A stretch of DNA of 64,000 nt from Planctomycetota bacterium (GCA_018242585.1 JAFEBQ010000004.1:35558-99557), one strand, 5' to 3'; numbered from the stretch's first letter, positions 10,076-56,282 are shown. The notes: a model not told the origin generated them from the letters alone. A program made the numbers and translations.

Positions 10076-10115
10076 TAGAACGGCCGCGCGTTACAGCCGT
10101 CGCGCGCCCGCCGCG

Positions 10116-14209: not shown

Positions 14210-15565
14210 TCAGGAGTGGGGCTCGTCAATGCTCCATTCCTTGAGCCGGCGTTGCAGCGTGCGAACCGAGATGCCCAGCGTCTCGGCCGTGCGCGAGCGG
14301 TTACCGCTGAACTTTTCCAGCGTCTGGAGAATGGCGGACTTCTCCATGTCGATCAGCGTGGCGTCGTCGGGCAGCGTCCCCAAGCCGGGAGTTGTCGAAA
14401 AGCTCGGCGGCAAGTGCTGTAGCGACAGTTCATCCCCCTCTTGCAGCACGAGCATGCATTCCAGGCAATTGCGCAGCTGCCGGACGTTGCCAGGCCACTC
14501 GTAGCTCTCGAGAAACGTCCGCAGTTCGGGGCTCAGGGCCGGGCGCGGCCGGCGAATGCGCTCGGTCAGGTCGGTGAGGATATGCTCGGCGATCGGCACG
14601 ATGTCCTCGCGATGACTGCGCAGCGGCGGCAACATGATCGTGATCACCTGCAAGCGATAGTACAGGTCTTCGCGGAAGCGCCCCTCGTGCATGAGCGCCG
14701 TCAGGTCTCGACTCGTGGCGGCCACCACGCGCACCTCGACCGAGCGTGGCTCGTTGCCGCCCACGGGCGTGATCATTCGAGTTTCCAAGGCGCGCAGCAG
14801 CTTGGCCTGGGAACTGAGCGGAAAGTCACCGATTTCATCGATGAACAACGTGCCACCGTGGGCCTGGGCAAATCGCCCCTGCCGGTCGACCGTCGCCCCC
14901 GTGAACGAGCCGCGGACATGGCCGAACAACTCACTTTCGACGAGCGACTCGGGAATGGCCGCCATGTTGACGACGACAAACGGCTGATCGTGCCGCGCGC
15001 CTTGCGCGTGAATTCCCTCGGCCACCAACTCCTTGCCGGTTCCTGACTCGCCTTGAATCGTGACGGTGCTGTCTGACTTGGCGGCGCGGGCGATCTGCTC
15101 GCGAACGCGGTCCAGGGCCGGCGAAGTGCCCACCAATTGCCCCGACGGCTTGAACCGTCGGGACGCGGAACGCAGCCGCGGCGTCGGCGGCGGCTGCTTT
15201 TCCTCGTTGCAATAGCTCTCGGCCAGCTTCAGCAACTGGCGCGGGTCGACCGGCTTGGTCAGATAGTCGCGCGCCCCGAGCTTCATGGCGTTGACCGCCG
15301 ACTGCACATCGCCGTAGGCAGTCACCATGATGAACGGCGTGCCTGGCTTGCGCGCCATCCACAGATTGAGCAAATCGACGCCACTTTTTGTGCCCAGGCA
15401 AAGATCGCTCACCACCAGGTCGACCGGACGGTTAATGGTCTCGAGAGCCTCGTCGGGATTGCGCGCGGTCAGGACTTCGTAGCCTTCGATCCGCAGCATC
15501 CGCGATAGGGCTTGCCGCTCGTTGGCGTTGTCTTCCACCACCAGTATGGAATGTTGATTGGCCAC
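14210..15565 (-). CDS. sigma-54-dependent response regulator (NtrC-family enhancer-binding protein)
   Basis: REC: ILVVEDNANERQAL...DLVVSDLCL...MVTAYG...ARDYLTKP. AAA+ sigma-54 activation domain: TIQGESGTGKELVAEGIH, ESELFGHVRGSFTGA, GGTLFIDEIGD, RVVAATSRDL, REDLYYRL. C-terminal Fis-type HTH: RSRTAETLGISVRTLQRRLKEW. Confidence 0.93.
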   Translation of the reverse strand: MANQHSILVVEDNANERQALSRMLRIEGYEVLTARNPDEALETINRPVDLVVSDLCLGTKSGVDLLNLWMARKPGTPFIMVTAYGDVQSAVNAMKLGARDYLTKPVDPRQLLKLAESYCNEEKQPPPTPRLRSASRRFKPSGQLVGTSPALDRVREQIARAAKSDSTVTIQGESGTGKELVAEGIHAQGARHDQPFVVVNMAAIPESLVESELFGHVRGSFTGATVDRQGRFAQAHGGTLFIDEIGDFPLSSQAKLLRALETRMITPVGGNEPRSVEVRVVAATSRDLTALMHEGRFREDLYYRLQVITIMLPPLRSHREDIVPIAEHILTDLTERIRRPRPALSPELRTFLESYEWPGNVRQLRNCLECMLVLQEGDELSLQHLPPSFSTTPGLGTLPDDATLIDMEKSAILQTLEKFSGNRSRTAETLGISVRTLQRRLKEWSIDEPHS

Positions 15566-15580
15566 GATCAGGGTTTCCTG

Positions 15581-17083
15581 TTAGCAGATGGAAATCAGCA
15601 TCGGCACGCTCAGCAATTGAGTGGCTGCGGCCAGCGTCGCCGGACTGACCTGCAGCGGATCGCTGACTTGCTTGGCGTTGGTCGGCAAGTTCACGCAAAA
15701 CTCGGCGCCACCTTCGGCGCTATCTTGGCAATGGATCGTCCCCCACGCTTCCTCGACAAAGCGGCGGACCAGGGCCAATCCCAACCCGGTCCCCAGGTGC
15801 TTGGTCGAGAAGAACGGCTCGAAGATCGCCTCGCGCAACTCCTCCGGCACACCCGGTCCTGTGTCCGAAACCTGGAGTTTCAACGTCTCGCCGTCGGTGG
15901 CGACCGAGATCCGCACTTGCCCGTGCGGCCCAACGGCCTCGGCCGCGTTGGTCAACAGATTGAGCATCACTTGCCGCAAGCGGGTGCGATCGATGAAAGC
16001 CAGCGCAGGCTCGGTGGGCAACGTCGCCGCCAGCTTGATCTCGTCCCGATCCAGCAACGGCCCCATGAAGGTCAACAGCGAACGGACCTCGACGCCAACG
16101 TCAACCAGTTCGGCCCGGGCTTCCTCGGGCTTGGCATATTCCAGTAGCGTGCGGAGCATGCCCTCGACGCGCCCGATTTCTTCGATCGTCTCGGTGACAA
16201 TCTCGGTGGGTTGTGATTCACGAGCGGCATGAGCCAACCATGCCCGTTCGATCACGTGCAGGTTAATGCGGACGGCATTCAGCGGATTGCGGATTTCGTG
16301 CGCGATGCCGCCGGCCACCTGCCCCAACTCGGCCAACTGTTTGACACGGCCAACGGCCAGCGCGGTCTGTAGATCGGAAACACGCTTGGCGATCGAAATC
16401 GCCGAGTAACAAGCCAGGCCCACCACCACGACAATGAGCAACGTGGTCACGATCCAGCGCTGTCGCGTGGTGGCCATCACCTGGGTCAACCGGCGCTCGA
16501 ACCATTCGGTATTCAGCCCCGAGTGATACGTCGCAATCTGTTTGCTTCCCACCAGAACCGGAATTGACAGATCATAGGCGGTGATTCCACCGGTCAATTC
16601 TGGGGAACTGGTCTCGACCACATCCTCGCCGGCGTCGGGCATCTGACGCTGATACCAATTGTGGGCCAGCGCGCCCCCTTCGAGCGACTTGGTGCTGTGC
16701 TTGAGCACCTGCCCCGTCTGGTCAACCACCGCCGCGTAGAGATGCGAATCGTCGGTTGGCAACGTCCGATCCCAATGGCGTCGCAGCCATTCGGCGTCGG
16801 CCTTGTCGAGTCCCTCTTGCGGCGAGGTGATGTGCTGAAATTCGTCCTGAATGCGCATGGTCGTGCGAATGGCGTGCGAGCGCAGCCGATTCACCTCGAC
16901 CTGCAACAGCCCGTTGCGAGTTTCCTTGAAGTCGAGCGTCATGCTCCAGAAAGCGATTCCCGCGATCCCCACCACGCACAGCCCAAAGGCCAGGAACAAC
17001 AATGCCAAATTGCCGCGCAGCATCGCCCGAGAGACTTGCTTGACGCGACCAATGGCTCGAGGCGGGTTCATCAGGTATTCCAC
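15581..17083 (-). CDS. sensor histidine kinase (two TM segments, periplasmic sensor domain)
   Basis: TM1 LALLFLAFGLCVVGIAGIAFW, TM2 WIVTTLLIVVVVGLACYSAI. H-box GGIAHEIRNPLNAV. N/G boxes LLTNAAEAV, DTGPGVP, GTGLGLALV. It lies 15 nt upstream of, and is co-oriented with, the NtrC-family gene. Confidence 0.9.
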   Translation of the reverse strand: MEYLMNPPRAIGRVKQVSRAMLRGNLALLFLAFGLCVVGIAGIAFWSMTLDFKETRNGLLQVEVNRLRSHAIRTTMRIQDEFQHITSPQEGLDKADAEWLRRHWDRTLPTDDSHLYAAVVDQTGQVLKHSTKSLEGGALAHNWYQRQMPDAGEDVVETSSPELTGGITAYDLSIPVLVGSKQIATYHSGLNTEWFERRLTQVMATTRQRWIVTTLLIVVVVGLACYSAISIAKRVSDLQTALAVGRVKQLAELGQVAGGIAHEIRNPLNAVRINLHVIERAWLAHAARESQPTEIVTETIEEIGRVEGMLRTLLEYAKPEEARAELVDVGVEVRSLLTFMGPLLDRDEIKLAATLPTEPALAFIDRTRLRQVMLNLLTNAAEAVGPHGQVRISVATDGETLKLQVSDTGPGVPEELREAIFEPFFSTKHLGTGLGLALVRRFVEEAWGTIHCQDSAEGGAEFCVNLPTNAKQVSDPLQVSPATLAAATQLLSVPMLISIC

Positions 17084-17471
17084 TCAACGAAAGATCGAGA
17101 TAATGCGGCGACGCCAAGCGCGACCACACGCTCCGTCGTGTCACCCCCAAAAGCAATCGGTGCGCCAAAACGTCGCCACGTGGCGAAAGTATGGCCAGTT
17201 AGTCGCTTACGAGATTATTTGCACCATGCCACTAATGAGCAATGCGACAATTTGCCGCCCTCCCCAAATGGCGGAAGACAAATTGTCGCACGCCGCGCGC
17301 GGTCATTGAAATGGGTTTCTAACCCTGTCCGCGCTGGTTCGCGGGGCAACGCCGGTGGCGAATCGATCACGCTCCACGATTCAGGCGCGACGAAACGCAT
17401 ACCCGTGGCACGGCTTAGAAGCCCCGATTCAAAAACCGGGGTTGATGTGAAAAGCGCCGGCGTGTTGAGTG

Positions 17472-17672
17472 CTAGCCACGCGCTACTTCGCGCAGAGATT
17501 CTTCGGCCTCGTGCAACTTTTCGAGCATCTGGCACAGTTCGGTGACGTTGTCCTCGTCGGCTGCGGTCGGCGCGGCGTCGGCGGTCGACGGCTGTTGCCA
17601 GTGGGCGACCTGCTCGCGAATGGTTTCGACCTGTTCTTCTAGCTGCACGATGTCGCGTGATGGGCTCATCAT
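17472..17672 (-). CDS. small acidic coiled-coil protein (66 aa), hypothetical
   Basis: MMSPSRDIVQLEEQVETIREQVAHWQQ...LCQMLEKLHEAEESLREVARG. Codon usage resembles neighbouring genes. AAGGGA lies 5-10 nt upstream of the ATG. Confidence 0.5.
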   Translation of the reverse strand: MMSPSRDIVQLEEQVETIREQVAHWQQPSTADAAPTAADEDNVTELCQMLEKLHEAEESLREVARG

Positions 17673-18116
17673 TGATTCCCTTTGCAGTAGGCTACTGCAA
17701 CATTATCGCTCTTGGCCAAACATGGCAACGATCAATCTCCTGACAAAACCGATGCCGTGATTGTTTGCCTTCAGTTGATCCATTACGGCTCATCACGCGC
17801 CACGATGGGGATGCAGAATACTCAAGCGACGCACGCGAGCGAGATTTGCACAAGCTGGGAAAACCACCGACGATTCACAGCGCCACAACTCACCCGGCAG
17901 TCTATCAGCAATGGCTCGTCTGCATGGTGTCGCGAAATGGATACAGTGCGAGACGATTTCAGTCTTAGTTTGCTTCGATAGCTCGCGTCGTCGAACTCAG
18001 AACGTGAGTTGGTCGCGATCAACCTGATTGCCATCCTGTCATATTTCCCTCGCTTTCTTGGCGATTCTTGCCAACTTCCCTGATGTGGATTGGTTTTCTC
18101 TCCATTCACCACGACT

Positions 18117-18131
18117 TGGCACACCGTTTGC
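18117..18131 (+). promoter_or_regulatory. candidate sigma-54 (-24/-12) promoter
   Basis: TGGCAC(18117-18122)-accgt-TTGC(18128-18131) is an exact match to TGGCAC-N5-TTGC. It is intergenic, 86 nt upstream of and oriented toward the ORF at 18217. Confidence 0.55.
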
Positions 18132-18216
18132 GTTTATCTGGCCACAAGCTCGGTACGAGTCTGGCACAAACAACAATCCACCCCAGTTCAGGTTCCGACC
18201 GCGAAAGGATGCCACC

Positions 18217-18414
18217 ATGGTCAGCCATAACCACGACAGCCGATTGAATCAGCCGTGCCACTTGTCGATTCGGGAAATCCATCACCGCGCCGACCTGATC
18301 CGCGATCAATGGGACTCGCACGAATTGCAGGTGCGCCACGAACGGGCCTTGGAAGCGCAGGCTCGCTTGATACGGATGGCCATCTCGCTCGACGAATCGG
18401 CTTGCGGGCGCTAA
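18217..18414 (+). CDS. small His-rich hypothetical protein (65 aa)
   Basis: MVSHNHDSRLNQPCHLSIREIHHRADLIRDQWDSHELQVRHERALEAQARLIRMAISLDESACGR. GAAAGGA lies upstream of the ATG. Third positions are G/C-rich. It is preceded by the -24/-12 candidate. Confidence 0.45.
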   Translation: MVSHNHDSRLNQPCHLSIREIHHRADLIRDQWDSHELQVRHERALEAQARLIRMAISLDESACGR

Positions 18415-18686
18415 GTCGTCGCGGATTTGCCGTCGAGTGCCGGCGTCGGATTGGCGATTTGCGCCCCACCTGCTTCGGCGGGCGGCTGATCGCCAAGCTC
18501 GACGGCCGTGGTCATCGTTTCGGCCACCACCGAGCCCAAGGCGCTCAAGATGGGTGTCGTATCGCGGAAAAGCCGGCCCACCGCCAGCCGCACATGCCCA
18601 GTCGCCGGCAACACACCATTGGTCGGTTCAAACCCCTTCCAATCGGCGTTCGACAATGGGCAATTGCACCCAGGCGCGCGTGGCAT
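18411..18686 (-). CDS. hypothetical protein (91 aa), last gene of minus-strand operon
   Basis: First ATG after an in-frame stop, 43 nt downstream of the preceding gene. Third positions are strongly G/C. No family recognised. Confidence 0.45.
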   Translation of the reverse strand: MPRAPGCNCPLSNADWKGFEPTNGVLPATGHVRLAVGRLFRDTTPILSALGSVVAETMTTAVELGDQPPAEAGGAQIANPTPALDGKSATT

Positions 18687-18728
18687 TGGCGGGCGCGACG
18701 GTCAACTCGTCGGCGTTGACCAAAACGG

Positions 18729-19073
18729 TTAGCTGCGCCGGCCCAGCCATTGGGTAATCAGCAGCTTGGCGACTTCAACCATCGGTGGCAGCGCGAGCGT
18801 CAGCCACGAGGGAATCGGCGCCGGCGCGGCCTCTCCTTTGGTGGGCCGACTTCGTCGCGTGGTGAACACCATTCGGCCGACCGCAAAGCCGACCAGGCCA
18901 GCGCCGGCGGTCGAGAGCCACGGATGCTGGCCGACGATACGGCGCGGCTCCAGATCATCACCAACGCGCGCGACGATTTCGCCACGGCGACGGCGGATAC
19001 CGGCCTCGGCCAGGGCCAGTTCGCCGGCCAGCGGATCACGCTGGTTCGCTGATGTCGCGGCCAAATTGCTCAC
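18729..19073 (-). CDS. small membrane protein, YqjK-like position (GTG start)
   Basis: Coiled N-terminus, then HPWLSTAGAGLVGFAVGRMVF. It follows DUF883 and holin-family genes, as in the enterobacterial yqjD-yqjE-yqjK arrangement. The assignment rests on context and architecture only. Confidence 0.5.
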   Translation of the reverse strand: MSNLAATSANQRDPLAGELALAEAGIRRRRGEIVARVGDDLEPRRIVGQHPWLSTAGAGLVGFAVGRMVFTTRRSRPTKGEAAPAPIPSWLTLALPPMVEVAKLLITQWLGRRS

Positions 19074-19488
19074 GCTGTTGTTCCCGACGATGCTCGTATT
19101 TTTTGCGCAATTGCGCCCGCCACGCGGCCCTCATTCGCCAGACCACCCCCCCGCCCAGCGTCACCGTGGCCAACAACACCCCCGCGCCGACGCCCACACA
19201 CCCCAGCCAAAGCCGGCCACCGAGCGCCTCGCCCAGCAGCACCGCCGCTCCGATCAACAGCAGCGCCGTGGCCACCATCAACGCGGCAACGACCATCGAC
19301 AGGGCCAAGATCCCGGCGACCCCCAGGATGGCCGCACGGTGCGCGCGATCGCGCCACTGATCGAGGCGAACCGACAGATAGTACCAGACGTACTCGGCCA
19401 ACTCTTGCCCAAGCTGCGCATACGTCGCGTCGGCGTCCGCCTCTGGCGCGGGCGGTTGTTCCGGATCGTCGTGAACCTGGGCGATCAT
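19036..19488 (-). CDS. phage-holin-superfamily-III-like membrane protein (YqjE-like)
   Basis: Two long TM segments (AAILGVAGILALSMVVAALMVATALLLIGAAVLLG; LWLGCVGVGAGVLLATVTLGGGVVW) are followed by the basic tail RAQLRKKYEHRREQQREQ. It lies directly downstream of a DUF883 gene. Confidence 0.65.
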   Translation of the reverse strand: MIAQVHDDPEQPPAPEADADATYAQLGQELAEYVWYYLSVRLDQWRDRAHRAAILGVAGILALSMVVAALMVATALLLIGAAVLLGEALGGRLWLGCVGVGAGVLLATVTLGGGVVWRMRAAWRAQLRKKYEHRREQQREQFGRDISEPA

Positions 19489-19552
19489 GGCGAGTTACTT
19501 TCGGCAGCACCTGCGCACCGCGCCACCATCCCTTGGCACGGTAACGCGAAGA

Positions 19553-19852
19553 TCAGCGACGCGTCCAAATGGCTCCCAATACAAAACCGATTCCCGCCGC
19601 CGTCAGCACCGCGCGGATCGGATGTTCGGTCAAGCACTGCTCGATCGATTGCTCGACCCCGCGGATCTTGGCACGCTGTTCTTCGCGGCACGTCTCGGCT
19701 TCCTGGCGCAAGTCACTGACTTTTTCCCGCGCCGCCGCCTTGGCCGCTTCGGCCAGAGCCTTGATATCTCGTTCCAAATCGGCCAACCGCTGGCGCAGCT
19801 CTGCGGCGGCGCGATGCGTTTGATCCGCTGAGCTGGTGTCACCCGTCGACAT
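19553..19852 (-). CDS. DUF883 family (ElaB/YqjD-like) membrane-anchored protein
   Basis: A helical, charged N-terminal ~70 aa is followed by EHPIRAVLTAAGIGFVLGAIWTRR. This matches the family C-terminal anchor pattern (ENPW..vgiaAgiG.vlG.ll.RR). Confidence 0.8.
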   Translation of the reverse strand: MSTGDTSSADQTHRAAAELRQRLADLERDIKALAEAAKAAAREKVSDLRQEAETCREEQRAKIRGVEQSIEQCLTEHPIRAVLTAAGIGFVLGAIWTRR

Positions 19853-19886
19853 GATCCGACTCTCCTCCGTTCAGGTTCCGAAACGA

Positions 19887-20123
19887 TCAAGGCTGCGGAG
19901 GTTGTCGCGCCTGGTGCTTTTCGATATATGACCGGGCGCGGTCATGATCGATGGCGCGGACCAGCAGCTTGATCTTCATCATTCCCAATCCGACCAGGCC
20001 AGCCTGCGATTCGCCGTCCACTTCGCACTTGATTCCCTCGCCGTGCAAAGCGCCGCGCAACAGCTCGGCTTCGGTCGCGTCGGACGTGGAAAACACCTCT
20101 ACTAAATCGTCACTTTGAAGCAT
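19887..20123 (-). CDS. DUF2007 domain protein (putative signal-transducing, PII-like fold)
   Basis: The 78-aa product LVEVFSTSDATEAELLRGALHGEGIKCEVDGE...IKLLVRAIDHDRARSYIE fits the typical DUF2007 pattern. Confidence 0.7.
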   Translation of the reverse strand: MLQSDDLVEVFSTSDATEAELLRGALHGEGIKCEVDGESQAGLVGLGMMKIKLLVRAIDHDRARSYIEKHQARQPPQP

Positions 20124-20879
20124 GATTCAAGCCTTCCGTTGTTGCAACCGCCTGGAACCGCTCGCGATTCTCCGGCAATCGTCCTTATATCGCAGCATTC
20201 CCGGGCGGAGGCAATCACCTGGGGGCAAATTTCGTCAGACAGGTTGACCTCGTGTTGACCAATGCTCATGCGACAAATCCGCACGATCCGCCACGCTTAA
20301 GAATGGCCAACCAGCAACGCCGACGTTTTTCCGATGGATACGAAGCCCGTCGGTTACCACCGCGATGGGCGAAGCCGTCGATTTGACGCACACGTTGCTG
20401 GCGCGCTAATTGCCCACGAAGCGAAGGTGGCGTCCGTCAGAATCGGACAAGGCGTTGTCGTGCGCGAATTGTCGATTGCCATGAGCATGGTTGTGGTTGA
20501 AATGGCCAACGAAGAGGCCGGACGACACGGTATCCAGGCGACGATGGCCCATTTGCAATTGAGATCCCTGTTGTGAGTCGTCAAGAAGACGGCGCTCGCG
20601 TCCTTGGCAATGAAGCATCGCGCTGGCGGCGCTGATCGGCGACCCGACGACCAACCACGCCGCGCGACGACCGGCAGGAGCCAATGTGTCAGTGACACAG
20701 ATCATCACGGGGACGGTCTGTCACCGGGAAGCGGCAATGGCGCGCGACGAGTGGAAGCCGACGGAACTCGACTAGCTGTTCATCAACACAGCGGCTGAGT
20801 TGAATGCGGCGTCAGCCCACGACCTTCCAGCGCCGTTTAGCATGAAACCTGACGTCGCAACTCGCCAGGGATCGCCGCA

Positions 20880-21287
20880 CTATCGCGAAACGGCCGTCGT
20901 GTCGCCGATCGAGCTGACCGCGTGGACAAGCGACAGAATCGCCGCGCGAACCGAGTCGGGAACCTTGGGCCAAGCCTCTTCGACGAACTGCAAGTCTGGC
21001 TCGTGTCGCGGGTGGTTGTCCGCGCGGTCGTCCGGGTGGTGAATGCCATACTGCGCCGCGGCCAGAATCAGCTCGCGCCGCGAGCGGGCTTTGGTCTTTT
21101 GGCGAATGCGGTGGACAAATACGTTCACCGTGCCAGCCGCTACTCCGATCGTGTCCGCGATTTCCTTGTGGCTATAGCCTTGAACCAGGTACGTCAGGAC
21201 GGACATCTCGCGCTGGCTCAATTCGGGCCAAGCGTGCGGGGATGCTAACACTTTGGTTTCGTTCAGTTCGTGTTCCACGATCGACAT
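20880..21287 (-). CDS. LuxR/GerE-type HTH transcriptional regulator (135 aa)
   Basis: Start placed at ATG 21287 (MSIVEHEL...). HTH: LSQREMSVLTYLVQGYSHKEIADTIGVAAGTVNVFVHRIRQKT. The upstream 91 codons of track ORF 20880..21560 are Cys/Arg/Phe-rich and look non-coding. It is divergent from the giant gene. Confidence 0.75.
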   Translation of the reverse strand: MSIVEHELNETKVLASPHAWPELSQREMSVLTYLVQGYSHKEIADTIGVAAGTVNVFVHRIRQKTKARSRRELILAAAQYGIHHPDDRADNHPRHEPDLQFVEEAWPKVPDSVRAAILSLVHAVSSIGDTTAVSR

Positions 21288-22041
21288 AACTGCGGACTCC
21301 CATCCTGAAATACACCGTCGCCATCCTCGTCGGTCGCCATTCTCAGTTTGGCTGTCGACGGACAACTCCTCGCGGCCGCGCGTCGTAGCGCGGCATCGAA
21401 AAAGGTTAACTTTGTCTGTGTATTGAACGCTGCCTGCGCGTTGGACGCAGGATCGACACCAGCCGACGTAAAGCAAATGGCGTACCCTGGCACGACAAAC
21501 GAGCCCCACCGATGAGGGGAAAACCAGAAAATCGCCGAGAAACACGACAAATAATCGCAAGAAAATAATTTACGTTCTCCGTTGCAAGGGGGGGTGCGCG
21601 GAGCGTCATTACGCCAGCGCGTCGCCGAATCCATGCACTACCCGCCATTCTGTCGTATTTGACAACCACAACACGCATGATTGCGCCGCGCGGCGCCGCG
21701 GACAGCTTGAACGGCGGCTCTCGATGCTCGCAACAGCCTCAAGAAAGTGCTTGGCGCAGCGGTCCGATTTGCTCGTGACGATGAGCGCCGCCGCACATCA
21801 TTCATACTGGCGAGGCAGCAACTTCTTTTGCTTTAACGCAACCCGCGCAATCAATCATTAACGACAGACTGTCGCGAAAGCTTTACAAAACACGCGACTG
21901 CCTGTCGGGGGGCACGACACCCCACCAAGCGTCTTACGCCACTCTTCTTCAAAAAATGCGCGCGCAAAACATTAACGATTCCCGTCATTTTAGCATTTTT
22001 TCTTTACACGCGCGGCGTTCGCTCGCGCGTGGCATGCCTGC

Positions 22042-22056
22042 TGGCATATTTTTTGC
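22042..22056 (+). promoter_or_regulatory. candidate sigma-54 (-24/-12) promoter upstream of the giant gene
   Basis: TGGCAT(22042-22047)-atttt-TTGC(22053-22056), with correct GG/GC spacing. It is on the + strand, 355 nt upstream of ATG 22411. Confidence 0.5.
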
Positions 22057-22410
22057 CTTCTACCTAGTCGCGCGGGCTGTGCGTTGATAACGCGGCTGTT
22101 TTGAAAGCGCTGGCTCGGGAGATGCCAGTCGCATTCGGTACGGCTGTGTGCGACGGCAATTCGCAACGGCATGTCTCAGGGCTGACGCGTGCCACCTGCA
22201 CGGGGCAGTGTATCCGTTTGATTGAGATGCCCGCGAAGGGGGTGCCTTCGTGGGAGTGCGTTGTGCGCTCGGCTTCGGATCGAATTTGGTTGCAAATTTC
22301 GACGGCCTTTCTGGCCAAATCCTGAGACGACCTGTGGTGCGGCGAAGGTTTCCTTCGAACCGGCGGTTGTGCTGCGCCCAGAGTCTCGTTGCTTGACAAG
22401 GTAGGCGGTT

Positions 22411-22497
22411 ATGTACGTAAAGGCTTCGCGCCGCTGGGCGGCCGCGTGGTTGCTGCTCCTTTCGTTTTGCTCGGGGTTCGCGCCGCGCTTGCAGGCC
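22411..22497 (+). other. predicted Sec signal peptide of the giant protein
   Basis: Basic n-region KASRR, hydrophobic core WAAAWLLLLSFCSGF, and LQA-A cleavage-type site. Confidence 0.6.
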
Positions 22498-25400
22498 GCC
22501 CCGCCAGCTAGCGATTCCGTTCCCAACCTCGGCCAGCCGCGAGGGGAAGCGCGTTCCCCGCTAGTCTGGGGCTGGGACCGGCAATCATTGCGACCGATGG
22601 CGCCACAGCCCGCGGCGCCCTTGGCCATTGCCGAGCGCGCCGATTACCGCTATGGCATCGAAGTCGGAGCGCTCGGCATCGCGCGCGAAGCAACTCCGCC
22701 GCCCGCGCGTCGAGCGGCCGATGAAGCCGGCGTATTGACCGAGTCGTTGCTGCCGCTGCGCAGTGGCACGCTCCGCTTCCAAAATGGGCTGTCGCCGATC
22801 TTCACACGCGCGCGGACGCTAACCATCCCGCTGCCCGCTCAATCGCGGCCAGTGCTGTACGTGCCCAATGCCGAAGAATTGCAACAACTGCAACAGCAGG
22901 TGGCGAAGCAACAGGTCAAAGTTGACGCGCTGCGACAAAAAGCCGCACAACGGCGCCAAGCCGAGTTGACGGCGCGCCGCGGCGGTGGCAACGGTTGGTT
23001 CAGCGTCGGCTTCTTCATGCTTGCCGCGCTGGGCGTCGTCGTCATGTGGTGCTGGCTGGCTCGGAGCGCTCGTGTCGGCGGCCCAGCACCGGTCGGCGCA
23101 ATCGAAACCGACCAACTCGATGACGTCTGGGACGAGGAAGCGTTCTTTGAAGAATCGGCTGCGGCCGGTCAGTTCGCGGCTTTGGCCTTGGAGCTCAAGC
23201 GGGCCTTCCTCACCGGACAAGCGCGGATCGACGCCTGGCTCGAACGAGGTGGATTGTTGCGTTGGTGGGACGCGCTGATCGCCGCCTGCGGTTCCATGGC
23301 TCGCGACGCGGTGGATTTGGCGACCGGCACTCGATCAACGCGCCGTCAGATCGCGCGGCGCGTCGGCCACCACGCGCTGGTTTACTGGTGCGTCATCATG
23401 TCGGTGCTCATCGGCCTGCCCCAATCATCACGCGCCGGGACGTTTTACTGGGATCCAAATCAGAACGTGAACAACAGCAATCCCTACAGCCTGGCCACGC
23501 AGATCGGGCTGGGTGGGGCTGGCACGTGGGACAACTTGACCACGATGTGGTGGGATGGCTCGAGTGTTACCGACACCACTTGGAACAACGCCGGCAACGA
23601 CGTGGCGGTGTTCGGCGGGCTGGTCGGCGGGGCCGTCAACTTGCAGGCCGCGGGAATCACCGTCGGCGGCGTGACGTTCAACACCACGGGCTATACGGTC
23701 GGCAGCGCCAACACCCTGACCCTGGGGGGAACGACGGCCACGTTGACGGCCAACGCCAGCGCCACCATTTCGTCGATCCTGGCCGGTTCGGCGAACATGG
23801 TGAAGAACGGCGGTGGCACCTTGACCATCACGGGCGCTTCGACCGGCTTTACCGGCGGCACGACGATCACGGCTGGAACACTGCTGCTCAAACAAGTGAG
23901 CCTGGGCCCCACGGGCACGCCGACGACCATCACCCTGAACAACGGCGGCGTTCTGAACACGTTCGACGCGGCGGCGTTTACGTACACCAACTTGATCAAC
24001 GTCCAAGGGGCGGCCACGATCACCAATGGCGGAAACGTCCCCACCACGATCAGCGGCGGGCTGAACGTGGCCAATTCGCTCTTCACGATTGCTGGCTTTA
24101 GCACCTATACGTTCTCGGGCGCGACGACGCTGGCTGGGCCGATCACGACGTTGAATGTCGGCAACACGGTCTTCCTCTCGGGCAACGTCACCGGCGCGGT
24201 GCTCAACAAGACGGGCGGCGGCCCCTTGGTGCTAAACGGCGGCGCGGGGGTCAACGACAGTTGGTCGTTCACGCCGACGTTCCCCTCGGGCGGCTCGAAC
24301 CCGATGGCCGTGACCAATATCCTGCAAGGCCGCTTGTTATTTCAGGGGGCCAATTCGCAATTACAAGCGGGGACCGTCCTGGTCAATGCCGGCGGTGAAC
24401 TGGAAGTCAGTACTGGCGCGAATCTGAATGCGGGCACGAATATCGTGCTGGCTTCGAGTCTGAATGGCATGGGCGCCCTCGGCTTGAACTCGGCGGTGGA
24501 CATGAGCGCGACGCCGATCGCCAATTTTCAGAACGCGATCGTGGGCGTGTACGGCGGCGCGTTTCAGATCAATAGCTCGACCTATACCTTCCCCATCGAT
24601 CTGTCCAACTTCCTCTGGTCGACCGGGGCTTCGAGCAGCCCGATCTATCTCGGCTCGGCGGCGGGCGGCACGTTAACGGGCACCTTGTCCCCCGACCCGA
24701 CCGGCGCCTATCGCTTGGGTGGGAATCTGTTGAACAACACGCTGACCGTGTCGGGCAACAACACATTTACCAACGCCACGGCCCCGTTGATCATCGGCTC
24801 GCCGATCGGCAACGTGTCAGGCTACAACACCTCGACCGGCGCCACGGTCATCAGCGGCAACAACGCCGGCTACAGCGGCACGGTGACCGTCAACGGCCGC
24901 AGCCAACTGAACCTGGCCGGCACGACCAATCAGAACCCCATCGGCACCGGCGTGATCGATTTGCTCGGCCTGAGCACGTTGAACATCAACGGCAAGTACG
25001 TGGGCACCAGCCCGATGCTGGGTAACACCACCGTCAATGCCTATGCCGGCAGCACGATCCAGTTGAACAACACGGCGTTCACCACCGCCAACACGAACGT
25101 CCGCTTCGATCCGTCAACCGTGCTGAACATGTACGGTTCGACGCTGAATTTCACCGTCTCGTACACGGGTGCCTTGACCACTTCGGCCCAGCAGTTCGCG
25201 ACCTTGAACATGTCGGGCGCGGTCAGCCTTCAGGCCAGCACCACTACCACCAGCGGCACCGGCACGTTGACCTTCTCGGCCTTGAACCGTAACGACAACG
25301 CCACCTTGGCATTCCTGGCGTCGACGACGTCGTACGCCATCATCGGCCGCGCGACCAGCACTGGCAGCGTGCAAATCTTCGCCCCCAATCTCAACGGCAC

Positions 25401-28400
25401 CAGCGCCGCGCCGCCGGTGACCAATGGCATGGTCGCGCCGTGGATGTTTGACCAGACGAACCTGACGTTCATGAATTACGGCGCGACCGGCTTCATCGAC
25501 GCCCCCTGGACATCAACCCTGTCAACGGGCACGATCGGCGCGAATCCCACCGGGCTGGTCGTGGTCACCGCCAACATCAACACCGCCGCCGGCGCGTCGG
25601 CCTGGGCGTTCCGCACGGCCAACAACATCGGCGGTACGACCCTGACCATCGGCTCGGGTGGTTTGATTCAGACCGGCGGCACGATCTCGGCCCCGATCGT
25701 GTTCGGCTCGGTGGGGACGCCCGTCGAGGCGGTGCTTATCAACACAGGCAACGCGACCATCTCGGGGGCCATCACGGCCAACGGACTGACACGCACGGGC
25801 TCCACCGGTACCACGTTGACGATCAGCGGAGCCAACACCAACCTGACCGGCACCATCACCGTCAACGCCGGCACGTTGTCGGGCAGTCAGACCGGCTTGA
25901 ACTACCGGCCCATCTTGCTGAACGGCGGCACGATCGACTTTAACAATGGCACGGTCTTTTATCAGAACAACATCACGGTCAACGGCGACGCGCAGATGAG
26001 CGACTCGAACGGCGGTCAGCCGCGGTTGGGCACGTTGCAAGTAAACGCCCGGCCAAACGATCCGACCGACCCGATCGTGTTGTCGATGGTGAACCAGAAC
26101 TTCGACATCGGCACGACCACGCTCGGCGGCAACACGATCTTCAACGTCACCTCGGGCACCACCCGGATCGACGGGCCGTTGGTGGGCGAGGGCGTCTCGT
26201 TCACCAAGTACGGCGGCTCTTTCCTGTTCATCGACAGCACGACCAGCAGCTTCACCGGCTCGGTCACCGTTAACCAAGGGTTGTTGCTGCTGGCCACGGG
26301 GAACAATGCCGGAGACACACCGCTGGGTACGGCGGGTAGCACGGGGAACCCGATCGTCGTCAACCCGGGGGGCAACCTGGGGATCACCAATACGACCGTC
26401 TCCGGCGTGACGAACGTAACCTTGACCAGCGACACAGGCGGCCTGGCAGGCATCGGTCTGGCCTACTCGGGTAACGCGGGCTTGCCGTTGGCAAGCTCGC
26501 TGTCGTTGACGATCAACTCGGCCAATTACTCGGCGCCGTTTGGTGGCGTGGTGAGCATCAATGCCACCGGCTTCAGCGCGCCAATTGACTTTGGCAACAT
26601 CTTTGGCCAGTCCAATTGGTTCCTCGGCTCGAACTTTGGCGGCAGCTTCACCGGCACGCTCACTCCGGACACCAACGGGGTCTATCGCCTGGGGGGCGGC
26701 GGCAGCACGCTCACCCTGGTGGGCGGCAACAACCAAATCAACAACAGCACCTTCACCGGTGGCGTCACGGTGCAGTTCGGCGCCATCAGCAACTATTACC
26801 AGGCCAGCAGCGTCGCGCTGTTTAATGGCAGCGGCAACGTGCAAATCGCGGTGGCGAACAACTACAGCGGTTCGTCGATCATCAACGCGGGCGAGACCGT
26901 CTTCGCGGCCAACAACAACGCGCTTGGCACGAGCACCATCTTCTTTAACGGCGGTGGGCTGGCGGCCGATTCGTCCTCGGGGCTCCCCACGCTCAGCGCG
27001 CTGCGGACCATCACGAACACCATCGGGTTCTACGGCGACGCGGTGTTCACCAACACGCCCAGCTTGGTGATTGCCGGACAGGTGAACCTGGGCGACGGCA
27101 TCACGGGGGCGAACCGGACCTTGACCATCAACAATGCCGCCACTTCGAGCACGTCGGACGGCATGGTAATCATTACCGGCACGATCTCCGATGGCATCAA
27201 CGGCGCGGCCAACAACAGCCTGACCAAAGGTGGCGCCGGCGTGCTGGCCCTGACCAATACGAACAACAGTTGGACGGGTGCCACCAACATCAACCTCGGC
27301 GAAATCCTGGTCACCAACGACTCGCAAATCTCGTCGCAGTCGTTGATCACGATGAACGGCGGCGGTCTGGCGGCCTGGACAACCTCGTTCACCACCGACC
27401 GGCCTTATGTCCTGTACGGCCTCGGCCTGTTCGACGTGGGGGCGGGTGTCACCCTGACCCAGGCGCTCGACGTGGCCGGCAACAGCAACCTGAGCGGCGC
27501 CGGTGCGCTGAACAAGCTGGGCCTCGGCACGTTGCTGCTCAATGGCGTCAACTCGTACACCGGCATTACCACGATCAGCAACGGCATTCTGGCCGTCAGC
27601 GCCGACGTGAACCTGGGTGACGTGCCGACCAAGCAGTCGGTCACCATTCAGGGTGGCGTGTTGCAGGTGCTCAACACCACCGCGAATTTAGGCTCGTTCA
27701 CCACCTCGCGCAATATCGCCGTCACCACGTCGGGCGGAATCGATATCGCGGCCGGCGCGACCGCAACCGTTGCCGGCGTGGTAAGCGGCACGGGCTTGTT
27801 GACCAAGCTTGGCGGCGGCACGTTGTTCGTCGCGGGCAACAACACCAACACCGCGGTGGCGATCCAAAACGGCGTCCTGCAAGCCAGCGGCAGCCTGCCC
27901 TTCGCGGCCACGGCCACGCTCAGCTTCAACGGCGGCACCCTGTCGCTGAAGAACCTTGCCGCCAATCAAACCGTCACGACTTCGGGAGCTTCGACGTACG
28001 GCGGCGGCGGGCACTTGGAAATCATCGCGGGTGCCACCACGACGAGCACGTTTACCATGTCGGGCGCGCTGACTCGATCGGGCTTCGGCACGTTGATCCT
28101 CAACCCGGGGAGCACCAACACCCTGGGCGTGACGACGGCCGGCGGCGTGCGCTGGTTGCAGACGGGCAACATCAACGGCGTGGCCGCGGCGTCGGCCAAT
28201 GTGAGCGGCGTCGGCATCTTGCCCGCCAGCATCATCGTCGAGACCAATGGCATTGGAAACTTCGCGGTCTCCAGCGGCGGCACGGTGGGCGTCAGGTCGT
28301 ACTCGGGCGCCGTGGTGACCGATCTGGTGAGCACGCCGCTCCAGCCAACGGCCATCGCCTCGATCAGCGCGACCCAGAACCTGACCGGCACCAGCAGCAT

Positions 28401-31400
28401 TTACGCTCTGGCCACGTCGGCCGATATCACCGGCGGCACGCTGCTGGTCGAAAGTTTGTCCAACACCAATCAAGGTGGCATCCTCGTCAATGGCAACGTG
28501 ACCATCGGCGCGAACTTGATCGCTGACGCCACCTATGCCACCGGAACCACCACATCGGGCGAAGTCCTGCTGTACGTCGCGCCGGGCTTTACGGCCTCGG
28601 TCACCGGCAACGTGGTCGCCAACAGCTTCACCAAATTCGGCACGGGCACGCTCAACTTGAGCAGCGCTGATTTTTCCGTGCTGGGCGCCGTGACGGTCCA
28701 AGAGGGAACGCTGCGCATCGGAGCGGGCGCTGGCAATTTGTTCTCTCCCGGACAGACGCAGTTGTTCTTGAACAACCAGGGCACGTTGGATTTGAATGGC
28801 CAATCGCTGATGGTTGCCGGCCTGGGTAACACGGCGGCCGTCACCGGTGGCATCGCCGGCGGCATCGTCGGTAACAGCAGCAACACCAACGCCACGCTCC
28901 GCGTCAACAGCCCCAACGGCGCCGTCACCACCTTTGGCGGCGTGATTCAGGACAACCTGGGGTCGGGCACCGGCAAGGTCACGCTCAACAAGAACGGCCA
29001 GGGGACGTTGGTGCTGTCGAACTTCTCGACCAGCAACGACCAAGCCAGCCAGAACAGCTTTACCGGCGGCGTGAACCTGACGGCCGGCACGTTGACGATT
29101 CAAGACCCGCAGGCCCTCGGCGGCGCCAATGGCACGACGCCTGGCGCGGTCAACCTGTATGGCGGCACGCTGAACCTGAACAGCAACGGCGGCGGCTTCA
29201 ACAGCGCGATCATCCTGGGCAATCCGACGACCACGGGGCTGACGCTGAATCTGCTCGGCTCGGCGGCGATCAACGTCGATCGCACCACGGCCTCGACCAG
29301 CTACACGGGAAACTACTTCCAAATCGGCACGCTGAACCTGGGTGAGAACACCCTGTCGGTGACCGGCGCCGACAGTTATGGCCTGCAAGTGCAGGACGCC
29401 GTGAACATTCTGGGCAACTACGCCGTGATCGCGCCAGGGACCGGATATCCCAGCGGCACCCTCAGCCTGGCAGGCGTCATCAGCGGCGGCGCGCTCGACA
29501 TCAAAGCCCTCGGCAACTACACCTTCACGACGGTCATCGCCGGCAATAGCAACACCTACACCGGCGGCACCAACATCCTGACCGGCGCGCTGCAGATCGT
29601 CCCGACCAGCGGCACGCCGCTGGGCAGCGGGCGCGTCGAGGTGTTTCCGGGGGCGGTGTTGCGGTTGTCGAGCACCTTTGGCAACGACGGCACGATTGGC
29701 GGCGCGGCGCTGCAAGTGCTGAGCACCAAGAGCACGATGGGGGTGGTGGCCCTCGACACGAGCATTGATCCCTCGACGCTCCTGACATCCAGCAATTTCA
29801 ATAGCGCTTATAGTGTTTTGCTGGGCATCTCGACGCCGTACTTTTCCCAACCGCTCGACATGTCGACCATCGGCAATGGCCGCGCGTTCCTGGGCGGAGC
29901 GCTGAACCAGGAAGTCGACTACACCGCCGCGACGCTCGGCGCGGGCGCCGCCGAGCCGATCATCACGACGCTGACCGGCGTCAGCACCCCGGTTTATCGA
30001 CTGGGGGGCGGCGTCAACAGCCTGGCCCTGGTCGGGCCCGACAACCTGCTGACCGACAAGGGGGGCGTGCCGACCTTCGTTCAGTTTGGCAACCCGAACA
30101 GCAATGTCGCCTCGGTCACGCTGGGTGGTGGCACGATCTACATTCGTGAATCAAACAACTACACCGGCGGCACCCAGATCGCCAAGTCAACCACCGTCGA
30201 AATCGACGTCGGTTCCGGCCCGGCCGGACAGACGCCGCTGGGAACTGGCACCGTTGAGGTGTATGGCACGCTGCAAGCGGGCCTGCCGGGGGGCTATAAC
30301 GGCGTGGCTTCGTTCTTCAATGCCGCCACGGGCACCAACTCGGTCAACATCCAGATGCGGCCGGGCGGTTCGTTGCTGATCTTCGACGCGCCGGGGAACG
30401 TGCCCGGGGGCCAGGGCCGCTGGGGCGACAATGTTCCGCTTGACTTGAACGGCGGCACCTTCCGTTTCTTGGGCGCTTCGTCGTACGACTCGTCCGAGAC
30501 GATCGGCGTGATCACCGTTAACAAAGGCTCGACCTTGTTCGTCAACCGCGGCGCGGCCGGCAACGCGGCTTTGACGATCGGCGGCACCAATGCCACGACG
30601 GCCGGCCTGGTGCGCGGGACCGGTGGCACCTTGCAGATTCAGGTGTCGACCAGCTCGTTCCATGCCTTGGGCCAGGCCGACGGTGTCGGCACTTTGTCTG
30701 GTCAATCGGATCGCTTGATCGTCAACGGTGGCATCAGCGGGATTGGTGGATTGAGCGGCGTGACCAACACCGGCAGCGGCGTGATCGCCGGCGGCGTCGG
30801 TATGGCCGCGCCGTGGATCGTCGACCTGACCAACCTGACGTACGTCACCTATGACCCGTCGGGCCTGGGGACCGGCTTCCAGGATGTGTTGCCCAATAAC
30901 GCCTCACCGGCGGCAGGCCAAGTCGGCTATAGCCAGATTGTCAATGGCGCGGTCTTTGGCGCCGGCGCGAGCCCGGGCCAGGACACGATCGATGTCGAAG
31001 TCGCCGCCACGACCTTGTCGTCGAACATCGACGCCTGGGCCATGCGCATCGGCGCCCAGACCACCATCAACCCCAACGGTGCGTTCAATCAAATCACGCT
31101 TGAGAGCGGTGGTTTGTTGGTGGCCGCGGCCTCCACGCTGGGGGCCGCGACGACATCGACCGGTATGTTGGGTTTGCCGGCGCCGATGACTCTCTACTTT
31201 GGCAACAGCAGCACGAGCACCCCGACCGAAGCCATCATCTACAACAGCACGACCGTGACGATCAACGCCCAGATCGTCGCCAACGGCCTGACCAAGTTTG
31301 GCGCAGGCCAACTCGATATCTTCTCGAGCAACCCGTCGTTGTCCGGGACGATCACGATCAATCAGGGCAACCTCATGGTGTTGAACTCGATTAGCGGTAT

Positions 31401-34400
31401 CGGCACCACCGTGGCCGGCGCGCTCAACGGCCAGAATGTGGTGCTCAATGGCGGCGGCTTGGTGATCGATGCCTTTGTCGGCAACGCCTCGACCGCCACC
31501 CAGGCGTCGAATATCCGCGCGACAAGCTACCTGGGGAGCAATGTCACCGTCAACGGCGACGCCGCGATCACCAACAATGGCCAGTCGACGCTGCAGCGAA
31601 TCAACGCCCTGACACTGGCCGATCTTGGCCCGCACAGCCCGATCAATCTGACGATTCAGGGCATCGCCGTCATGGGCCCGGTGACCTTGGGGGCCAATAA
31701 CAACAACATCATCGCGTCGTTCGCCGGCATGGCGAATGAAATCTTCTATGGCCAGGTCAGCGGCGGCATGCTCAGCAAGTGGGGCAATGGCACCCTGACC
31801 TTGGTGAACCCCACCAACAACTACTCGGGGGGCACGATCGTCAACGGCGACGCGCAAGGCACGGCGACCAGCGTGCTGGCCAGCATGACCAAGACCGGGA
31901 CGCCGTTCGGCACCGGGCCGATCTCCGTCAACCCGGGCGGCATGTTGCGGATCATGGACCCCAGCAACATCGCCAACCAGACCGTCACGTTGAACAGCGA
32001 CGGCATCGGGCTGGCCGGCCTGGCGCTGGCCTATAACGGTCCCGCGCCGACGATCACCACGTCGGGCACGGCCCAGAACGGCCAGGTGCTGGTCCAGTCG
32101 AGCGGCGACTTTGGCGGCGTGCTGGCCTTGGACATCAACTTCTACACCCAAGCGATCAACCAGGCCACGTTGGGCAACGGCAAGATGTTCCTGGGAACGT
32201 CGACCAGCAACACATACTTCAACGCCACGCTCACTCCCGGCGCGCCGGACAGCGGAACCACGCCGGTCTATCGTCTGGCCAGCGGCGGCAATCAGGGTAC
32301 CCTCAGCCTGGGTGGCGGCTTCTTCGAGAACGTCTTGACCGCGGCCAGCAGCCCGACCGGCACGGTCAGCGTGCAGATCGGCGCCGCCACCGGCGCCGAT
32401 CCGACCAGCACCCTGGCCACCTACGTGAACGGCAACGGCTCGTTGGCCTTGAACAATCGGAACAACCTGACGGCCGGCAGCATCGTGCAAATCAACGGCG
32501 GCGCGGTGCCGGTCATCAGTCAGAACAACACCAACGGCGCGAACCTGAACCTGGGCAACAACCTGGCCCTGGGCCAGGCGACGCTGGTCTTCAACGGCGG
32601 CAACCTGACCGACTCGACGTCGATTGTCTTGCCGGCGGTCAACAACCTCGTCCTGCTGGCCGACACCATGACCGCCAGCAACGGCTCGGAGATCGACATC
32701 CTGGGGAACGTGAACATGTCGCCGTCGGGCGTCGGCGCCACGCGAACCTGGAACATGACCAGCTCGACCTTGGCCATCGACGGCGTCGTCAGCGGCGTCG
32801 CCGGCTCGGACCTGATCAAGACCGGCAACGGCTTGTTGCTGTTGGGTGGGCAGAACACGTACCTCGGCACCACGACGATCAACGCGGGCACGGTGCTGGT
32901 CAGTACGAACGTGCTTGCCAACCAGAACGGCGCGCTGGGGAACAGCGACACGCCGGTCATCCTGGGCAATGCCGGCACCAACACCGCCGGCAGCATGGGC
33001 TTGGCCGGGCAGGTCACGTTTGGCCGCGACATCCAGACCACGCCCAACGGCACCGCGTCCAACAATCTGTATGGCCAGGCGCTCGCCTATGCGAACATCA
33101 CCGGCGGCATCAACTTGACGGGCACGATGAGCGTGCTGCAATTCAGCTCGACGACCAACACCGGCGGGATTCTTGATCTGCAAGGGGCGATCAGCGGCAC
33201 GGGGGCCCTGAGCCTGGGCGCCCAGGTGAGCACCCAATCGGGCACGGTGCGCATCTCGGGTAGCACCAACGGGCTAAGCGGCAACAACTTTACCGGCGGC
33301 GTAACGCTGGCGGGCGGGCGGCTGCAGATCGGCGCCGACACTTATTACACCGGTTCCACCAATTCGGGCACGATCCTGAGCGGCCCGTTGGGAACCGGCA
33401 CATTGACGCTCAGCGGGACCGGCGTCGTGCTCGAAGCGTACGGCGCGGCGCGGCTGATCATGAACCCGCTCGGCGCGCTGTCTTCGACCAGCGCCACCAC
33501 GGTCGCTTTTGGCGGACACAACAGCTTGACCTTTGCCAACTCCACGGCCTTCAACATCAACAGCTCGGCGTCCAGTCTAGCGCGCACGTTCAACGTGCAG
33601 ACCACGCAAGGCGTCGTCACCATCATGGCGCCGCTTACCCAGACCGGCACCACGTCGCTGACCAAGACGGGGGCCGGCACGTTGGTGCTGTCCGGCGCGA
33701 ATGCCTTCTCGGGCGGAATCACCATCTCGCAAGGCACGTTGGAAGTCTTTGCCGACAACAACCTGGGCGCGGTCACCTCGACGTCGAACAACATGACGCT
33801 CGGTTCCGCCAATAACTATGCCCAATTGATGCTGGGCGGCGGCTCGTCGCTCGTCTGGAACTCGGGCCTTGGCAATAGCAACCGCGTCTTGACGTTGGCT
33901 GGGCCGTCGTCGTTGAACTTGCTGGCCGGCAGCAGCTTGAACATCAACACCAAGGTCACGGCCGCGGCGGCGAACCCGCTCAGCGTGATCGGCCCGGGCA
34001 CGTTGTCCTTGAACAACACCACGAACGCCATCGTCAACCTGATCGTCGGTGGCGACCCGTCCGGGGGCGGCATTGTCCAGACGACGGCCACCTTGGGCAC
34101 TCCGTTTACCACGGGCGCGGGCAACAACGTGACGCTCTACTCGGGCGAGTTGTTCGTCAACAATTCCGCCGGAGCGGCGGCTCAGTCGATTACCATCGGC
34201 GCGCTGAACTACGCCGGCGGCGGTTATGTGGCAATGGCCATGGGGTCTGTCGCCACCACCACTTCGACGTTGATCGCGACGGCGCTGACGCGCCAAGCGC
34301 AAGGCACGATCATCATCTCGCCGTCGGCGCTGGCGAATCTGGGACTCACGGAAAAGTTCGCCACCGGCACGGCACAGTCGGTTACCAACGGCATGCTGAC

Positions 34401-56262: not shown

Positions 56263-56282
56263 TCGAAAGGCGTCTGCCGCGC

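Follow-up and report, generated by a model that had tools for sequence, protein, structure and literature searches.

A candidate sigma-54 circuit with a conserved palindromic operator at the locus of a giant PEP-CTERM gene in a Planctomycetota bacterium

Introduction

NtrC binds a 17-bp dyad of 7-N3-7 geometry, TGCACCA-N3-TGGTGCA, tandem copies of which lie about 32 bp apart at approximately -108 and -140 of the glnAp2 promoter, and enhancers can work over about 1 kb. ZraR controls the sigma-54 promoters of its own operon and of an adjacent divergent target from a shared intergenic region (PMC4987338), and sigma-54 promoters have been predicted earlier for ZraR-like genes in Planctomycetota (PMC12316311). 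The PEP-CTERM genes of Proteobacteria are single-gene units behind long non-coding regions, in which an activator motif is followed by a -24/-12 motif (Haft et al. 2006, PMC1569441). This motif was found only in Proteobacteria, and the regulators elsewhere remained to be found (PMC1569441). A description of planctomycete giant genes mentions no promoter or sigma factor (PMC5177795). Here, we analyse a 64,000-nt stretch of DNA from a Planctomycetota bacterium (GCA_018242585.1 JAFEBQ010000004.1:35558-99557, referred to as the window), in which the genes for a sensor histidine kinase and an NtrC-type sigma-54 activator lie near a gene for a 10,142-amino-acid (aa) PEP-CTERM surface protein.

Our reading, to which we give a probability of roughly 0.55, is that the activator binds a palindrome conserved among its relatives, activates its own operon and the giant gene and probably also activates a LuxR-type gene that is divergent from the giant gene. 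In such a circuit, the kinase would phosphorylate the activator in response to an outside or envelope signal. The activator, whose binding site is most likely tGCGACA-N3-TGTCGCa, would assemble on palindrome pairs about 80-180 bp upstream of -24/-12 promoters and would use ATP to open the complexes of sigma-54 RNA polymerase, for which the genome presumably encodes rpoN. Its own operon would be switched on from 17167(-) via the operators at 17243-17290, which amounts to positive autoregulation, the giant PATR/PEP-CTERM gene from 22042(+) via the operators at 21862-21907, and the LuxR-type gene, probably, from 21487(-) via the operator at 21643. A preliminary description of this DNA had already linked the kinase and activator to the giant gene, a link that we retain. 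It had also linked them to a small histidine-rich open reading frame (ORF) behind a site at 18117, a link that we do not retain, and it had missed both the candidate sigma-54 promoter of the operon itself with its two operators and the site and operator that face the LuxR-type gene.

Results and Discussion

The kinase-activator operon

The activator gene (14210..15565, minus strand) encodes an NtrC-type sigma-54 enhancer-binding response regulator. Its Pfam matches are Response_reg (PF00072, 2.4e-24), Sigma54_activat (PF00158, 8.5e-68), AAA_lid_14 and HTH_8 (PF02954, 4.5e-13), that is, the receiver, AAA+ and Fis-type helix-turn-helix (HTH) domains of the NtrC class. A tblastn search with the AAA+ core of the activator found no second sigma-54 AAA+ domain in the window. 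The loop that contacts sigma-54 reads GSFTGA, where GAFTGA is standard, and since the same variant occurs in 35 of 120 close homologues we regard it as a natural form. The HTH segment GNRTxAAExLGISVRTLQRxLKxW is nearly invariant among homologues.

The kinase gene (15581..17083, minus strand) lies upstream of the activator gene on the same strand, starts with GTG and forms one operon with it across a 15-bp gap. Two hydrophobic segments at approximately residues 24-46 and 208-232, taken as the transmembrane segments TM1 and TM2, flank an outward-facing domain of about 160 aa and are followed by the Pfam domains HisKA and HATPase_c. The outward-facing domain gave only a weak Pfam match, to sCache_3_2. 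Residues 30-467 of the kinase are 42-49% identical to the kinase encoded directly upstream of the activator in relatives, and the pair is kept in related loci. These domains, the gap and the tblastn search bear out the earlier claims that this is the only sigma-54 activator of the window and that it shares an operon with a periplasm-sensing kinase.

A palindrome that accompanies the activator gene

Relatives of the locus were fetched with the activator protein. This yielded 80 genome loci at 48-56% identity plus two more, L081 and L082, at 61%, as well as 80 metagenome loci as a second, independent set. Scans of genomes and metagenomes found no activator above 61% identity with usable flanks (one relative protein, P0004, is 64% identical), which precluded close phylogenetic footprinting.

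The palindrome was first noticed in the window by repeat searches, as two pairs with 31- and 33-bp spacing. Its core is the 13-bp CGACA-N3-TGTCG, and the extended 17-bp consensus tGCGACA-N3-TGTCGCa has 7-N3-7 geometry. No published description of this operator was found in a limited, targeted text search. Among relatives, 27 of 40 kinase-upstream regions contain the palindrome with no more than one mismatch. They hold 39 sites in total, where shuffles lead one to expect 1.2 and reach 5 at most. When all 5-mer inverted repeats with a spacing of 0-8 were ranked without any input from the window, CGACA-N3-TGTCG came first, in 25 of 60 kinase-upstream regions, and the next unrelated repeat occurred in 6 of the 60. 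The palindrome is also paired with sigma-54-like sites. In the genome loci, 69% of 119 operators have such a site 40-300 bp off that points away from them, compared with 8.6% of random positions, and the metagenome loci gave 71% and 7.9%, respectively. The distance between operator and sigma-54 site in relatives is most often 60-140 bp.

Sixty loci have a kinase gene directly upstream of the activator gene, and in 44 of them the operator lies upstream of the kinase gene; a sigma-54 site points towards the kinase gene in 15 of these 44 and towards a divergent gene in 20. In 32 loci without an adjacent kinase gene, operator and sigma-54 site immediately follow the activator gene. What stays constant beside the palindrome is the activator gene; the target genes vary. 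They encode GT2-TPR and PMT-like glycosyltransferases, a TolC-like protein and baeRF proteins, and further UspA-like, CsbD-like, cyanophycin-synthetase-like and small proteins, which were named by eye and not by profile search. In relatives from the Phycisphaerae/Tepidisphaerales, palindrome and sigma-54-like site come in this order after the activator gene and precede a gene for a conserved 75-96-aa zinc-ribbon protein with the pattern CxxC...CPKC (MSISMERFAS...QCRSCGFEPED...CPKCHG), which has no Pfam family match. This arrangement is found approximately 50-250 bp after the activator gene in L055, L057, L059, L063, L065, L067, L068, L070, L073, L076, L077 and L080, and the zinc-ribbon protein is likely a core target of the activator family.

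A palindrome matrix built from the relatives was then run over the window. The four best scores, at 17245, 21862, 17276 and 21643, all fall in the two intergenic regions concerned here, and five sites score at least 14 against 0.68 expected. Upstream of the kinase gene, O1 (TGCGACAATTTGCCGCC, 17243..17259, core at 17245) has the best score in the window, 19.6, and lies at about -110 relative to the start predicted for the kinase promoter; O2 (GAAGACAAATTGTCGCA, 17274..17290, core at 17276, score 16.7) lies 31 bp from O1, at about -141. The region between the LuxR-type gene and the giant gene contains O3 (CGCCATTCTGTCG, 21643..21655, score 15.0), 162 bp upstream of the LuxR-facing sigma-54-like site, a weaker copy at 21545 (score 11.7) and O4 (CGACAGACTGTCG, 21862..21874), which has an exact core, scores 17.5 and lies 174 bp upstream of the 22042 site. 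The operator-like O5 (CGACTGCCTGTCG, 21895..21907), with one core mismatch, is 33 bp from O4 and 141 bp upstream of 22042.

Candidate sigma-54 promoters

With the simple consensus TGGCAC-N5-TTGC, the window contained one exact match, 18117(+), against 0.3 expected from shuffles. Allowing one mismatch added 17167(-), 20399(+) and 22042(+), and the resulting four matches are not above chance (7.4 expected from shuffles). Because these raw counts did not exceed chance, consensus counting was replaced by a sigma-54 matrix made from 78 operator-adjacent sites in relatives, where TGGCGC-type sites recur next to operators. The top four sites of this matrix in the window are 18117(+) with 19.3, 17167(-) with 18.3, 21487(-) with 16.4 and 22042(+) with 14.7; the fifth, with 12.6, lies inside the giant ORF. 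All four are intergenic, have GG and GC exactly 10 bp apart and face a gene: the small ORF, the kinase operon, the LuxR-type gene and the giant gene, respectively. The four best palindromes sit 80-180 bp upstream of three of these four sites and none is near 18117, and the window contains four operator/sigma-54 pairs where 0.06 are expected per 64 kb. The significance of the sigma-54 sites rests on position, orientation and linked operator, not on their count.

The candidate promoter of the kinase-activator operon, TGGCGCACCGATTGC (17153..17167, minus strand), lies about 70 nt upstream of the GTG start, with O1 and O2 upstream of it. The exact core TGGCACACCGTTTGC (18117..18131, plus strand) has the best matrix score in the window and no family operator upstream. 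The third-ranked sigma-54-like site, GGGTACGCCATTTGC (21473..21487, minus strand), faces the LuxR-type gene about 175 nt before its ATG, and the fourth, TGGCATATTTTTTGC (22042..22056, plus strand), is a candidate promoter of the giant gene with one core mismatch and a predicted leader of about 343 nt. According to the preliminary description, 18117 and 22042 were the only two good -24/-12 matches. Both matches are real, one exact and one with a single mismatch, but they are not the only ones: 17167(-) had been missed, 20399(+) also has one mismatch, and 21487(-) outranks 22042 by matrix. The 20399(+) match was rejected as a promoter: its score is low, at 11.1, no operator lies at enhancer distance from it, and it runs into the 3' end of the LuxR-type gene. 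No sigma-70 consensus promoter and no Rfam family match were found in 16900-22600.

A further sequence, TGGCACGG at 17405-17421(+), is located 123 bp from O2 and directed away from the kinase gene, in just the place of the divergent sigma-54 promoter of relatives. Its -12 GC is 2 bp too distant, and it faces the 3' end of a 66-aa ORF. It may be the relic of a lost divergent target, or chance.

The giant gene and the LuxR-type gene

The giant gene (22411..52839, plus strand) encodes a protein of 10,142 aa, which begins with a signal-peptide-like sequence, contains PATR repeats and bears a PEP-CTERM motif at its C-terminus. This motif, VPEPGSLSLAALAGLGLGAYGWRRRRR, has the PEP residues, hydrophobic helix and basic cluster of the sorting signal and scores 21.5 with PF07589 against a cut-off of 20.7, and is atypical in that 25 more residues follow the arginine cluster (52765-52839). 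The LuxR-type gene is divergent from the giant gene across 1,123 bp, as had been described earlier (about 1.1 kb). As at proteobacterial PEP-CTERM genes, putative activator sites (21862-21907) are followed here by a -24/-12-like site (22042). The predicted leader (22068-22420, plus strand) folds at -159.8 kcal/mol compared with -141.5 kcal/mol in shuffles (z = -3.39) and has no Rfam match.

The closest retrievable relative, L081, whose activator is 61% identical, has a PATR giant gene of 9,584 aa at 4.3 kb from the kinase gene and divergent from it, as in the window. A palindrome scoring 18.0 lies 180 bp before the start of this gene, whose N-terminus is unrelated to that of the giant gene in the window. 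Control of the giant gene by the kinase and activator, proposed earlier from proximity, is therefore supported beyond proximity by the operators 141-174 bp upstream of 22042 and by the palindrome and PATR gene of L081, in both cases at the level of sequence. Conservation of the neighbourhood is limited. Among 163 loci, a PATR-type giant gene near the system is found only in L081 and L082, which form the closest lineage, and the small ORF, the LuxR-type gene and this giant gene are absent from all other related loci. For that reason, the wiring proposed here would be specific to the source lineage.

The LuxR-type gene (20880..21287, minus strand) encodes a stand-alone regulator of 135 aa with a LuxR/GerE-type HTH domain (PF00196, 6.8e-16) and without a receiver or autoinducer domain. 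The preliminary description had seen it as a co-regulator of the circuit. As a sigma-54-like site and an operator of its own face it, we consider it likelier, judging from its upstream sequence, that the LuxR-type gene is one of the circuit's targets than that it co-regulates independently. The sole LuxR homologue found, P0122, is 56% identical and is encoded at L083, a 1.66-kb contig, where its gene is divergent from a DUF883 gene homologous to window 19553-19852. Sigma-54-like sites face both genes at L083; the one that faces the LuxR homologue, TGGTACGTGATTTGC, is akin to GGGTACGCCATTTGC, and an alignment of the two intergenic regions was uninformative. A 6/7 sigma-54-like site precedes the start of the DUF883-like gene of L083 (1-159) by 110 bp. 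In the window, an operon downstream of the LuxR-type gene (18411-20123, minus strand) comprises genes for a DUF2007 protein, a DUF883-like protein (weak Pfam match to the C-terminal region of DUF883) and a hydrophobic protein of 150 aa, plus two further small ORFs, and no sigma-54 site was found before it. The arrangement at L083 suggests a conserved link between the LuxR-type and DUF883-like genes.

Several observations weigh against the proposed control of the giant gene and the LuxR-type gene by the activator. The 22042 site is the weakest of the top four sigma-54 sites (14.7), lies 355 nt from the ATG of the giant gene, which is beyond the usual distance, and overlaps a weak hairpin followed by a T-run. 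O5 has a matrix score of only 5.2. Beside the palindrome of the L081 giant gene no sigma-54-like site was found, and at L083, the locus of the LuxR homologue, there is no palindrome. The N-terminus of the giant gene has no orthologues, so that promoter conservation cannot be compared. The palindrome pattern was moreover derived from the window, which makes its high scores there partly circular; the independent evidence for the operator is its behaviour in relatives. A terminator at 22034-22056 was considered for the hairpin and rejected, as there is no upstream gene on the same strand.

A rival explanation is that the activator regulates only its own operon and distant targets. The palindromes between the LuxR-type gene and the giant gene would then serve the LuxR-type gene alone or nothing, the giant gene would use another promoter, and its adjacency would be due to chance, giant genes being numerous in the genome. 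Planctomycete genomes have tens of giant genes each (PMC5177795), and 160 other related loci have no giant gene nearby, which fits such a coincidence, as do the weak and distant 22042 site, the hairpin that it overlaps and the missing sigma-54 partner at L081. However, the exact core of O4 and the adjacent O5 are placed at enhancer distance from a correctly oriented site, a combination rarely expected by chance, and in each of the two closest lineages a PATR giant gene beside the system is preceded by a palindrome, even though different genes lie in between. We therefore consider this explanation doubtful, and prefer control of the giant gene by the activator.

The 18117 site and the small histidine-rich ORF

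A 65-aa ORF with seven histidines (18217..18414, plus strand) begins about 74 nt after the start predicted for the 18117 promoter. Its GC content at the first, second and third codon positions is 0.64, 0.39 and 0.76, which is coding-like. It is an orphan: an exhaustive search among 1.84 billion representative proteins found no homologue except itself. Between the kinase promoter region and 18117 lies a 66-aa, coiled-coil-like ORF (17472-17672, minus strand), which is coding-like in its third-position GC content (0.75) and has no homologue in any fetched locus. An inverted repeat of another kind, AACTCA-N5-TGAGTT, has an exact copy at 17994-18010, at about -140 of the 18117 promoter, and a copy with one mismatch at 20785-20801, between the LuxR-type gene and the DUF2007 operon. 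It has four matches against 0.8 expected and could be the site for a different regulator.

In the circuit as first described, the activator would drive both 18117 with its small ORF and 22042 with the giant gene, and the LuxR-type protein would be an independent co-regulator. The 18117 site is, after all, the best of the window, intergenic and before a coding-like ORF, and relatives repeatedly have small proteins among their targets (L013, L034 and the zinc-ribbon protein in Phycisphaerae). O1 and O2, at 830-870 bp from 18117, are within the reach of about 1 kb that an enhancer can have. On the other hand, the distances between operator and promoter in relatives are at most 300 bp, the 66-aa ORF intervenes on the opposite strand between O1/O2 and 18117, and no palindrome scoring at least 5 was found between 17673 and 18117. 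With no family operator within 830 bp, an orphan ORF and another inverted repeat at about -140, the claim that the activator drives the small histidine-rich protein is unsupported. The LuxR-type gene, with an operator and a sigma-54-like site of its own, looks like a target. We thus regard the circuit in its original extent as unlikely. The 18117 promoter and its ORF probably depend on another activator, or are weakly activated from far away.

That the palindrome is bound by another protein, such as the LuxR-type regulator or a global factor, would account for its lack of a sigma-54 partner in 12 of the 44 kinase-upstream cases and at the L081 giant gene, but is improbable, as LuxR homologues are absent from all other palindrome-bearing related loci, the palindrome tracks the activator gene whether or not a kinase gene is adjacent, about 70% of its copies pair with sigma-54-like sites at enhancer distances, and its geometry and tandem spacing of about 32 bp fit NtrC-type sites.

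Flanking genes

Other signalling genes flank the operon. A gene for a Ser/Thr kinase with a Tll0287-like domain lies beside one for an ECF (extracytoplasmic function)-type sigma factor (8141-10775, minus strand), and a gene for a response regulator with receiver and HD-GYP-type (HD_5) domains (12726-13976, plus strand) is convergent with the activator gene. The giant gene is followed by three tandem sulfatase paralogues (53081-57839, plus strand). A homologue of the third, 69% identical, is found 7 kb from the kinase-activator pair in L029, which is probably a coincidence in sulfatase-rich genomes.

Implications and comparison with known systems

On a wider scale, we tentatively suggest, with somewhat less confidence than we have in the circuit itself and at slightly below even odds, that a Planctomycetota-wide family of kinases and sigma-54 activators with a conserved, so far undescribed 7-N3-7 operator has been recruited here for the 10,142-aa PEP-CTERM surface protein and a LuxR-type relay. 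If true, PrsKR would have a non-proteobacterial counterpart, and an on-switch would have been predicted for the first time for one of the planctomycete giant genes, which are costly to express. Such a system would also begin to address the gap left by Haft et al. 2006 on PEP-CTERM regulation outside Proteobacteria. Few transcription-factor binding sites are known in Planctomycetota. The operator allows prediction of the regulon of this activator family in any planctomycete genome, and the targets that it suggests in relatives are genes of the envelope and of stress responses (glycosyltransferases, TolC-like protein, UspA, CsbD). The circuit is testable, since the operator sequence is defined, the regulator is named and four candidate promoters are mapped. 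The mechanism itself is ordinary, namely standard two-component sigma-54 activation.

The system resembles ZraS/ZraR-zraP, the envelope stress system of Escherichia coli and Salmonella, in its periplasm-sensing kinase and its activator with receiver, AAA+ and HTH_8 domains, encoded in one operon. As in a module of the ZraSR type, to judge by sequence, a sigma-54 site accompanied by operators faces the operon itself (17167(-) with O1 and O2), and 35 of 60 related loci have a sigma-54 site by the operator that points to the kinase gene or to a divergent gene. ZraS and ZraR are among the best NCBIfam matches of the pair, yet below the equivalog cut-offs: the activator scores 362 with ZraR (NF007689, cut-off 760) and the kinase 156 with ZraS (NF007688, cut-off 479). 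Unlike in ZraSR, there is no zraP homologue here, the targets differ (the giant PEP-CTERM protein and the LuxR-type regulator), and a zinc signal is not implied.

With PrsK/PrsR, the system shares a kinase and an NtrC-type activator tied to PEP-CTERM genes, here a giant gene behind a 1.1-kb upstream region with operators and then a sigma-54 site. The scores are again low, with 335 for PrsR (TIGR02915, cut-off 502.6) and 82.5 for PrsK (TIGR02916, cut-off 300), the latter over the kinase core only. In contrast to PrsK, the window kinase has two TM segments and an outward-facing domain, the upstream motif differs from the proteobacterial ones in sequence and spacing, and in most relatives the activator family regulates genes other than PEP-CTERM genes.

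The arrangement of O1 and O2, at about -110 and -141 with 31-bp spacing and 7-N3-7 geometry, is similar to that of the NtrC sites at glnAp2, and NtrC (TIGR01818) is the best-scoring NCBIfam model for the activator (395.7, cut-off 558.6). However, NtrB is cytoplasmic whereas the window kinase is membrane-bound with an outward-facing domain, the half-site sequence differs, and no nitrogen genes lie near the system in the window. None of the ZraR, ZraS, PrsR, PrsK, NtrC and AtoC models comes near its cut-off, and the pair is a member of neither ZraSR nor PrsKR. The kinase and activator described here most likely form a standard two-component sigma-54 switch that would function like ZraSR/zraP and PrsKR.

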